64,000 bases of DNA from a virus (IMGVR_UViG_637000272_000004:1-64000); one strand, 5' to 3'. Shown: positions 5,301 through 9,408, counted from the first letter of the stretch. Notes: generated from the letters alone by a model not told the origin. A program made the numbers and translations.

Positions 5301-8300
5301 CTAAAAATTACGCCTAATATTTGACATTTCATTCTTAATTATTTTCTTATTATATTTGCCATCGTCATAAAAAACATTGTACCACCATTCTTGTCTATCT
5401 CGAAGAGAAATTTTTTCTAGATATATTTTCCATCCAATAGACAATTTTTTAGTATTAAGAAAGTTTAATAAACTTTCTTTTTTAATAAGTAAACATTCAT
5501 TATCAAATTCGAGTAATTTAGAATTAATACATATTGTTTCAGCAAATTTAGTTTTCCATACTCCTTCTTCCGTTTGTATTAATGAAAAATAATCTACTAT
5601 TTCTTTACACGGAATATAAAAACTTATTGATTTGTCCTTAACAGAATAATCTAACTCCCAAAAATATTCATTAATAGCTGGACATAATTTACCATCTGAT
5701 TCAGTTAAATATCCCTCTTTATAATTTTTATAAGCTTCGCTCCAATAATATTCATATAAATATATACTATGTGCTCGAGGAATATTAATACCTCTATCAT
5801 AATTATTTTCATAACCTTTGATAATTTCATTACTATCTTCTTTATTATAAAAATATCCCATCGCTAAGAAATAACATGAGTCTCTATCTTCAAATGGTAT
5901 TTCTTTCTCTCTCTTTTCAAAATTAAACTTTGGGCTTAAACATATATATCTATGATTGTCTATATCTATTTCTAAAAATAATTTTGTTTCATCAAAAACT
6001 TTGGTATTTTTTACCCATTCATTCGATTGATGCGAAGGAAGTGGAGAGGGTACTAGTATTTTTGATTCTTTATCAATTTCAAGTAATAGTAAAGTAGGAT
6101 CAATATCTCTAATATAATCATCCCATAGTCCAGAATATTGAACATCAGGAAATTTATCTACAAGTTTAGCTAAAATTTCATAGTAAGCAATCCATTGATA
6201 TTTTTTGCTAATTCTTTCAATTGAATTATTAAAGTTATCATAACGATTAACCCACATATCAAATTCACCGTGTAATTTTGCATCATAACCCATTTCAAAA
6301 ATCCTCATTAATGCTATATTACTTAAGTCTTGATCACTTTTAAAACCCTTTACCCAGTTTCGTACAGCATAACCAAATACATATCTGCCAAAATCGCCAT
6401 ATGCCCCAGTTCCTCTTCCATATTCCGTTGTCATTGAGTTTTTAATTTTATCGATAGAAAAATGTAAATGGCTATCTAAATTGTTTTTTAAAGATTTTAT
6501 GTAAACGTCTATATCTAAATTCGAATATTCTTTTTTATACCAATTACTTTTATAAGGTGGCCTAATTTTTTCTAAATTTATATTAGATATATCTTTTGAT
6601 AAACAAATATATTCAATTGTTTGCCTAGCATAATCTCTCATTAAAATATGAGGATATACCATTTCTTTATCAAATATTTCTTCATAAATATAATTAGCAA
6701 TCTCTATATGTATTTCACAAATGTCGATTCGAAGTGTTCCCCCTAAAACAGAAGCATATAATCTTTCGACTATATATGGATCATTGTTATTTTCAAATAA
6801 TTTTAATAAACCAATAATTTTAGTTGGAAATGTTTTGAATAATTTTACTAAAGATTTAGTACCGAGATCTCTTAATTTATTATTAGTTGTAGAAAATATC
6901 CACGTTAAAAAAATCATATACTTTTCCGCAGTTTCTTCATCTAATCTCTTATAGTTACTAAATAGCCAATTAATAATTTTAAAAACCTTTTCATTATTTA
7001 TAGATACATACTGAGTCCATAAAAAATCTCTTTTTCCTAAATTGCATTGTTTCAATAATTTATGTAAAGCCCAAATATTTAACGGATGGTTTTTTTGAGG
7101 CATTTTTATTAATAAGACATCTAAAAAATTATTTCTAAATCCATCATAAGGAATAATATTATCGTATATATAGCATTTAGTATGTTTACTTATGCTTCCA
7201 TCTTTTCTCCATACTAAACTATTTATAAAAGAATATATCATGTTATAATTGTTTTTAAACTGTGGAAATACTTCAAATAGCTCTATATTAAATTCATTTT
7301 CTAATTTAATAAAAAGTTCATTAATAAGACCTCTATTATAAGATAAATCGTCTTCCTTTTGAAAATACCTTGTCACTTTTTCATCTGACTGTAATTTAGT
7401 TACTAAATCTCTTTTATCAACATTTCTATATTTCTCTAATAGGTATTCAGATAAAAAGTAATCTCCCATACGCTCATACGAAAAATAAATAATCATTTCA
7501 CCTTTATAGCCAGTATTTTTAATTAATATATTTTCATCTATTAGCGCTTCTAAAAATCTATTTGACTTTTGAACATACTCTTTAGCTATATTATTGACAA
7601 CAGTATAGGATTCCTCATAATTTAGTTGATTAAATTATGAGTCGTTCATTAATTCAACTAATCCTTTTATTACTTTTTGTACAACATTAATATTTTTATC
7701 AAAATCAAATTTATCTTCCTTAGATAAATTAATATTTACTGTCTTAAGAACATTTGTAAATAGCTCTGCAACACTTATAGTTTGGTCAAATTCCTTAAAT
7801 TTATTTACACAGTACTCACACATTAGTTTTAAAAATAATGGATTGTTGAATTCTGGATTTAATATAGGCAACTTAGGTAGCTCTAATCCATAAAAATCAC
7901 AAAAAGATACAATTGGATTATAGTTTTCTTCCTTACTAAAACCTTCATGCTGAAATACTACAATATTGTTATCTTGTATTGCGTTTTTGGGTAATATAAC
8001 ATCTTCAAAAGGGGTTCTAATAGAAAATATTAAAGCTATATTAGAATACTTCTTTATATGGTTGATAAAGCTTTGAAAATAATTTCCCCATAACCTTTTA
8101 CCTTCACCTTCATTAAGCGCATCAATAATAATAAAAGCTCTTTTTTTGTTTCTTTGGCCTTATTACTTATTGACCTTAAAAAAATATCAACAGAATTTGT
8201 AACTTCTAAATTATTAAGTATTTGATGCCATGGATCTTCATTTTTAGTAAAAAATTGTCCCAAAAACAGATAAATAATATGATTTTCATCTCTAAGTTTT

Positions 8301-9408
8301 TTAGATAGATGCGCTAAAAGGTGTGATTTTCCTATACCAGCTTCACCTTGAACTAGCAAATAAGGATAAAACAAGCATTCTTTACATGTTTCTTTTAAAT
8401 ACGTTTGATATTTTAATAATACTTTTTCGATTTTACTCATATAAGTTTGAAGTTCTAATTTTTCGTTCTCACTTATTTTGTATATATTACATTCATTATG
8501 TTCTGTCAGAAAAATATAAGGGTCAATATTAATTTCGTCTATCAATTCATAAATTTCACTTAAGTATTTTTTCTTTTCTTCAAACTCTTCTTCCAGTTCC
8601 AAATAATTATTGACTGATTGTTCTAAATTAGAGAATTTTTTTGAAATTCAAATAAATATTCTTTGCATATTTTGATTTCATCTTATCTAAAATATCATTT
8701 TCGATATAACCTTTTAATTCTTTTAGATATGAAATATTAGTATATTTAAAATTATTGGTAATAGAAATACCTTCTATAATTTTATTATTAATAGTATCGA
8801 TATCATTATTCGCAGTATATCGTGAAGCTAAATTTGATATATTAAATTCTAATTTTTCATTAATAAATTCTTCTTTTAAATATGACAAAGAATCTTCAAA
8901 TAAAAGTGGAGATAATTCTTTTTTTAATAATTCTATAGCGCTATCTTGATCATTTATGTTTAAATTCAAAAACTCTTCGCATAAGTCTTGAGTTAAAATA
9001 ATATCTTTTTTACTATCAAATAATATATTATACAGATTTGATAAAATATAATTTTAATATTATTATTTTGTTTTCCAATAAATATAAACTTTAATCGATA
9101 ACCTTCATCCATTTTATTTGTTAAATACTCTTTTTTTAGAGTATCCTCTATTTTTTGCTTTTTACACGTTGCGGTAACTTGAATAATAATTTTATTCGTA
9201 TTATCTATAAGATCAAATGCTGGTGCATTTTTTTGTTTTTATTATAATTTTCAAGTGAATACCTATATACAATATTTAACAGGTCTCTAAAAAAATATTC
9301 GGAATATATATGATTATATAAAATATTTATCTTTCCTAGTTCTTCAATCTTAGTATTAAGTCTAATTAGTGTATCAAGAAATTTTTCTTGATTCGTTGAT
9401 CGTTTCAA
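5301..9408 (-). pseudogene. SMEK-domain STAND NTPase, Avs2 (AVAST type 2)-like anti-phage protein, about 1369 aa when repaired
   Basis: Five track ORFs stitch into one gene after 4 frameshifts (T7 9228-9234, T4 9052-9055, T7 8636-8642, T7 8141-8147) and 1 in-frame TAA (7635-7637). SMEK-like N-terminus (HIYSEYFFRDLLN..PAFDLID..IIIQVT), Walker A GEAGIGKS, Walker B FIIIDALNE, C-terminal NDPYIVERL, ERISKKYQWIA and RDIDP motifs. Confidence 0.8.

Follow-up and report, generated by a model that had tools for sequence, protein, structure and literature searches.

The window analyzed here, the whole 64,000-nucleotide stretch IMGVR_UViG_637000272_000004:1-64000, carries on its minus strand (5301..9408) the relic of avs2, a gene that, if intact, would encode a 1370-amino acid protein with a SMEK/Mrr-like domain, a STAND NTPase and an Avs2 sensor. 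Four frameshifts and one nonsense codon, fixed lineage-wide, have made it an irreversibly inactivated pseudogene. The gene has already been characterized in Staphylococcus aureus as a defense, and the window copy is a dead allele of this known gene. Probably, it represents the allele of the genomic island vSa-beta found in bovine clonal complex (CC) 151 strains of the RF122 type, and its decay reflects the loss of a dispensable or costly defense cluster in a host-restricted clone and was not driven by the prophage next to the island. A link between the loss of avs2 and this prophage is unproven and unlikely. All coordinates given below are window positions unless another record is named, and the DNA reference for the intact allele was L001:10001-14113.

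Read on the minus strand from 9408 to 5301, the relic consists of six consecutive open pieces (68, 81, 141, 197, 174 and 777 codons, stop to stop), which cover the intact 1370-residue S. aureus protein P0134 from end to end in tblastn. The DNA alignment with the intact gene showed exactly four deletions and 62 substitutions. Frameshift 1 (9236..9240, codon 57) is a run of five A residues in place of six, and it precedes the conserved AFDLID (9203-9220) / IIQVTAT (9167-9187) core of the SMEK/Mrr-like domain. Frameshift 2 (9052..9055, codon 119; four A residues versus five) lies at the end of this domain, and frameshift 3 (8635..8642, codon 259), in the linker ahead of the NTPase, is a 2-bp deletion (AT/TA) at about 8635/8636 after a run of seven A residues. 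Frameshift 4 (8141..8147, codon 422; seven A residues versus eight) parts Walker A (GEAGIGKS, 8324..8347) from Walker B (FIIIDALNEG, 8106..8135); both motifs can still be read in the relic, but in different frames. The nonsense codon, E593* (GAA to TAA, 7635..7637), is located downstream of the NTPase. All these features are on the minus strand, as is the longest surviving open reading frame (ORF; 5301..7496), whose 731 amino acids (codons 640-1370) comprise the sensor and C-terminal region only.

All five lesions were detected in 10 independent assemblies (L009-L018), over a 4.1-kb sequence that agrees with the window at 99.95-100% identity. Disabling lesions relative to an intact orthologue are thus reproduced across independent assemblies. 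The exact 731-amino acid protein (P0133) occurred on 132 contigs and in 159 blocks of the indexed collection. Two of the ten related assemblies (L012 and L015) each have one extra indel in the relic, which fits ongoing decay.

The assignment to Avs2 was supported by several searches. The Pfam family SMEK_N (PF21941) matched pieces 1 and 2, which span the first frameshift, with 43 and 64 bits (cut-off 27). Six PADLOC Avs2 models matched pieces 3-6, with E-values of 5e-149 (the C-terminal piece), 7e-49 and 4e-22 on three of them, and the best matches covered positions 574-1349 of the 1379 profile positions. The intact allele passed the NCBIfam SMEK_N model NF033859 (98.8 bits, cut-off 30). It also matched the NCBIfam Avs2 model NF041813 (E = 1e-226), but its 755.5 bits, with the best stretch at profile positions 1-833 of 1317, are below the equivalog cut-off of 1000 bits, and it is therefore named only 'SMEK domain-containing protein' by NCBI. 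The orthologue of strain RN4220 was called Avs2 by DefenseFinder (PMC13660305). Residues 165-1334 of the intact allele matched the Avs2 structure PDB 9o4e (E = 3e-124), and residues 18-167 matched the Mrr domain of a short-pAgo partner, PDB 26bh (E = 6e-13). In Walker A, G356, G361, K362 and S363 were invariant in 45 homologues, as were D431, N434 and E435 in Walker B. An earlier note on this DNA had described an Avs2-like 4.1-kb gene with a SMEK-type N-terminus, Walker A and B, four frameshifts and one nonsense codon. Hidden Markov model searches for both families, carried out with the pieces and with the intact allele, and the structure matches bear out this description, and the count of lesions was exact; only the repaired length, given as 1369 amino acids, becomes 1370 by alignment.

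Because the sequence matches two solved structures, the predicted architecture is a SMEK/Mrr-like putative nuclease effector followed by a STAND NTPase and an Avs2 sensor. In its NTPase and sensor, the S. aureus protein is homologous to EcAvs2 (PDB 9o4e; Gao et al. 2022; Evans et al. 2026, preprint), a terminase-sensing, tetramerizing STAND protein, and its Walker A lysine is equivalent to K348 of EcAvs2. However, the homology begins only after residue 165 of the S. aureus protein, the N-terminal effector of which is SMEK/Mrr-like. The N-terminal domain is instead homologous to that of the short-pAgo partner Mrr-APAZ (PDB 26bh, from Kordia jejudonensis), with which it shares the PAxDLxD and QxT motifs, although in Mrr-APAZ the Mrr domain is joined to an APAZ/Argonaute sensor and not to a STAND NTPase. 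According to the SPARDA preprint, Mrr-like effectors of the short-pAgo type are those annotated as SMEK. The nuclease function of the staphylococcal domain is putative and is suggested by the conservation of motifs with the solved Mrr domain.

Judging from these relatives, the C-terminal sensor of an intact orthologue would bind a phage protein (the large terminase, TerL, in the enterobacterial relatives), this binding would lead to ATP-dependent oligomerization of the STAND NTPase, and oligomerization would activate the N-terminal SMEK/Mrr-like nuclease domain, thereby aborting the infection. The window copy could not act in this way, because frameshift 1 truncates the nuclease domain ahead of its conserved core, and because the Walker motifs are in different frames, a stop follows the NTPase and only a sensor ORF is left.

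Other S. aureus carry intact alleles. P0134 falls into a cluster (90% identity) that comprises 6116 S. aureus sequences, among them a second intact 1370-amino acid allele (P0146) and many partial sequences at contig ends, and intact alleles were found at the same locus (spl-hsdM-hsdS-avs2-DUF1433) in L001-L006 and L035. A search of genome contigs for relatives with P0134 yielded no confirmed relative. The orthologue in RN4220 (WP_000831218.1; S. aureus RN4220 / NMI717-05) is a working defense (PMC13660305, 2026): its knockout made the strain sensitive to phages 3A, 71 and 77 and left infection by phages 11, 53, 80, 80alpha, 85 and 96 unchanged, and avs2 was present in 14 of 47 strains in that study. 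At the RN4220 locus, avs2 follows the vSa-beta hsdS after the same 849 bp, hsdM and hsdS have the same lengths and 8-bp overlap, and the gene length of 4113 bp (from the knockout flanks) and the SMEK-NTPase-sensor architecture are also shared. P0134, which stands in here for the RN4220 sequence, shows ~97.5% protein identity to the window copy. Unlike the intact RN4220 gene, which confers protection from 3A, 71 and 77, the window copy, with four frameshifts and a stop, cannot function. It should be noted that the end of avs2 in Table 2 of PMC13660305 (1,796,540) gives 4023 bp, whereas the end of the knockout flank (1,796,449) gives 4113 bp (1370 amino acids); the former coordinate is probably a digit transposition.

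The relic resides in a well-known island. The gene order in the window (DUF1433 genes, hysA, avs2 pseudogene, hsdS, hsdM, spl proteases, bsa lantibiotic genes, lukD/E, a SNIPE-like gene, egc enterotoxins and a prophage) is that of vSa-beta. Since the window agrees over 20.7 kb, at 100% identity, with AJ938182.1, the record of S. aureus RF122 (bovine CC151), we take it to be from RF122 or a near-identical CC151 strain, and the prophage would then be phiSaBov. At the right junction between vSa-beta and the prophage (42409..42423), homology to prophage-free genomes stops at 42422, within the 3' end of the tRNA-Ser(GGA) of the empty site. The prophage begins at 42423, 33 kb from avs2, and extends to an integrase, where the 85.5-kb record ends; its position next to egc at tRNA-Ser agrees with that of phiSaBov described by Moon et al. 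2015 (PMC4402969). The resident TerL (429 amino acids, Terminase_3) is encoded beyond the window, at positions 67889-69178 of the contig (L007:3889-5178). TerL of phiSaBov is SAB1726. The prophage with a large terminase that the earlier note had placed beside the island is therefore there, and the SNIPE-like gene is intact, as it had also stated.

The same dead allele is found without the prophage. In a complete genome (GCA_900457855.1), the five-lesion allele (L013) occurs together with an empty tRNA-Ser site (L031) that lies between the tRNA cluster and hem genes, and in another complete genome (LS483300.1) the exact 731-amino acid ORF is likewise found together with an empty site. We examined 24 contigs with this type of island and found a prophage at the site in 9 and none in 15. 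In one of the occupied sites (L033), the phage was a different variant, with 96.7% identity in the lysis genes. The five lesions would already have been fixed in the ancestor from which this lineage descends, and they are present with and without a phiSaBov-type prophage.

The defense gene adjacent to avs2 is also dead. The hsdS gene of the type I restriction-modification system (10172..11371, minus strand) has a single in-frame TAA (10967-10969) at codon 135 of 399 and is otherwise in frame throughout, next to an intact hsdM (11364-12920). The same split, into ORFs of 126/134 and 192 amino acids, was seen in all ten related assemblies. This nonsense codon in the same lineage points to decay of the whole defense cluster. 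Because the avs2 lesions occur with and without the prophage and the adjacent hsdS is also dead, loss of a defense cluster is the most economical explanation.

Several points weigh against this explanation. Those CC151 genomes that have no prophage could once have had the phage and lost it later, so that avs2 may have decayed before or after its acquisition. The counts of nonsynonymous and synonymous substitutions (35:18 overall, 10:5 specific to the window allele) are too few to date the inactivation of avs2. The trigger of S. aureus Avs2 rests on structure models and not on experiment: TerL was proposed from AlphaFold models, in which phage 80, a non-trigger, scored as high as the triggers (PMC13660305). 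In addition, some Avs2 proteins recognize the nuclease domain or non-terminase proteins, and the resident TerL and that of phage 85 share only 69% identity in their nuclease halves. Finally, efficient production of phiSaBov only in RF122 is exactly what would be expected if an intact Avs2 acted against this prophage.

We consider this last possibility improbable. According to it, the phiSaBov terminase, or another phiSaBov protein, would trigger an intact Avs2 at induction and the phage would be aborted, and loss of the gene would make RF122 a productive lysogen and island donor. It has some attraction, as Avs2 proteins sense large terminases and the RN4220 Avs2 is a working defense. The earlier note had likewise proposed that loss of the sensor allows this lysogen; the proposal is weakened, without being refuted, by the empty tRNA-Ser sites beside the same allele, by a TerL resembling that of phage 85, by lysogens of RN4220, MW2 and MNKN, and by phi12. 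With regard to TerL, EcAvs2 binds terminase through its sensor, with ATP at the interface, forms a tetramer and recognizes the terminase ATPase domain. Over its full length, the resident TerL shares 85% identity with its counterpart in phage 85, which is not a trigger, and in the ATPase domain (residues 1-240) 236 of 240 residues (98.3%) are identical. The phiSaBov TerL is a mosaic, and the low identity to phage 85 in its nuclease half reaches a minimum at residues 301-360. Among the phages blocked by Avs2 in RN4220, it is only 31% identical to TerL of phage 71 and is unrelated to those of 3A and 77. Two phages with the resident TerL type, SA97 and SAP1_TA-2022, are recorded as propagated on RN4220.

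A resident prophage with a sensitive type of terminase also speaks against a conflict of this kind. The prophage phi12 of NCTC 8325, the parent of RN4220, encodes a TerL with 97% identity to its counterpart in phage 3A, which is Avs2-sensitive, and we infer from the descendant RN4220 that NCTC 8325 has an intact avs2. Given this, coexistence of avs2 with a prophage carrying a 3A-type TerL is possible in nature. PVL phages recorded from sequence type (ST) 8 hosts have a TerL that is 99.5% identical to that of 3A. In the phi12 record (NC_004616; L036:5886-7574), tblastn shows an uninterrupted TerL frame of 563 codons, longer than the annotated coding sequence (21215-22576).

The published behavior of phiSaBov can be read in both directions. 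Lysogens were obtained in RN4220, MW2 and MNKN (PMC4402969); the Avs2 status of MW2 and MNKN (ST1) is inferred from another CC1 strain. The yield of induced phiSaBov and its packaging were reported to be efficient in RF122 alone, the strain with the pseudogene, whereas lysogens of RN4220 and MW2 did not reach this efficiency (PMC5359561, main text and Suppl. Fig. S6; PMC4783081). In the RN4220 lysogen, excision and circularization of the phage still occur (PMC4402969), which fits a late block. However, in the MW2 lysogen the block is already at excision (PMC4402969), before the terminase is expressed. Plaques of phiSaBov form mainly on CC151, as a conflict with Avs2 would have it, and this narrow plating range was ascribed to the tail fiber. 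The comparison with RN4220 was made by plaque-forming units (PMC5359561, Suppl. Fig. S6) and the authors sought a positive factor in RF122; RF122 and RN4220 differ, however, in many other elements. There is a small chance that loss of Avs2 is the 'RF122-specific factor' sought by Park et al. (2017) and Moon et al. (2015, 2016), in which case an intact Avs2 in RN4220 and MW2 would abort phiSaBov at a late stage following induction, via the divergent nuclease half of TerL or another phiSaBov protein. The position of avs2 also speaks against this reading: it lies ~10 kb outside the 65.7-kb segment moved by phiSaBov (segment from PMC4402969; distance from the window coordinates), and recipients therefore keep their own avs2 allele. 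A phage of similar name, phiSabovST1, was set aside as an unrelated PV83-like phage.

Other resident elements might have exerted such pressure, but this seems quite unlikely. In this scenario, avs2 would have been selected against in CC151 through autoimmunity or cost caused by prophage remnants or by the S. aureus pathogenicity islands (SaPIs) of RF122, which depend on helper-phage terminases. RF122 does carry several SaPIs and phage remnants (PMC4402969), the inactivation of the adjacent hsdS suggests that the whole cluster was shed, and multiple lesions indicate an old loss. On the other hand, any such trigger is hypothetical, and neutral decay that followed one initial hit would leave five lesions just as readily. 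The idea that the frameshifts are homopolymer sequencing errors and that avs2 is really intact can be dismissed. Three indels of the four do change a run of A residues by one base, but the full set of four indels and the TAA stop recurs in ten independent assemblies that come from different projects, and neither this stop nor the 2-bp deletion is of the homopolymer type.

We also noted several features in the surroundings of the relic. Compared with the intact locus L001, the window lacks 87 bp between hsdS and avs2, through a deletion at ~9893/9894 within a transposase-like relic. Loss of the promoter through this deletion was considered and rejected: it is ~480 bp upstream of avs2, and the proximal promoter-like sequence and ribosome-binding site are conserved. 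In L010 and L011 (GCA_900098385.1 and GCA_900098465.1, positions 458-6133), four SSL genes of the vSa-alpha type are located directly upstream of the vSa-beta hsdM and replace the spl genes, an arrangement that suggests a rearrangement between vSa-alpha and vSa-beta via hsdM/hsdS copies. An egc enterotoxin-like gene (40395-41085, minus strand) is split into ORFs of 172 and 79 amino acids, similarly in L031-L033, whereas L028 and L029 have an uninterrupted 236-amino acid gene in its place. A 266-amino acid enterotoxin ORF had no exact match on record, its start codon being probably wrong, whereas the neighboring 242-amino acid ORF did match. Lastly, hysA (equivalent to 1739-4276) was called as 807 amino acids in L014 and L016 versus 845 in the window and others.

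For annotation and prediction of phage susceptibility, bovine CC151 strains should be scored as Avs2-negative and, for the vSa-beta unit, hsdS-negative. The avs2 of CC151 is a natural knockout, and it bears on the question of whether a terminase-sensing STAND protein limits the output of a resident prophage, in this case phiSaBov, a phage whose ability to mobilize a toxin-bearing island is known. The answer for the production of phiSaBov is probably no. If, however, an intact Avs2 did act against phiSaBov at induction, the pseudogene would make the CC151 clone a high-yield producer of this phage and a donor of vSa-beta.

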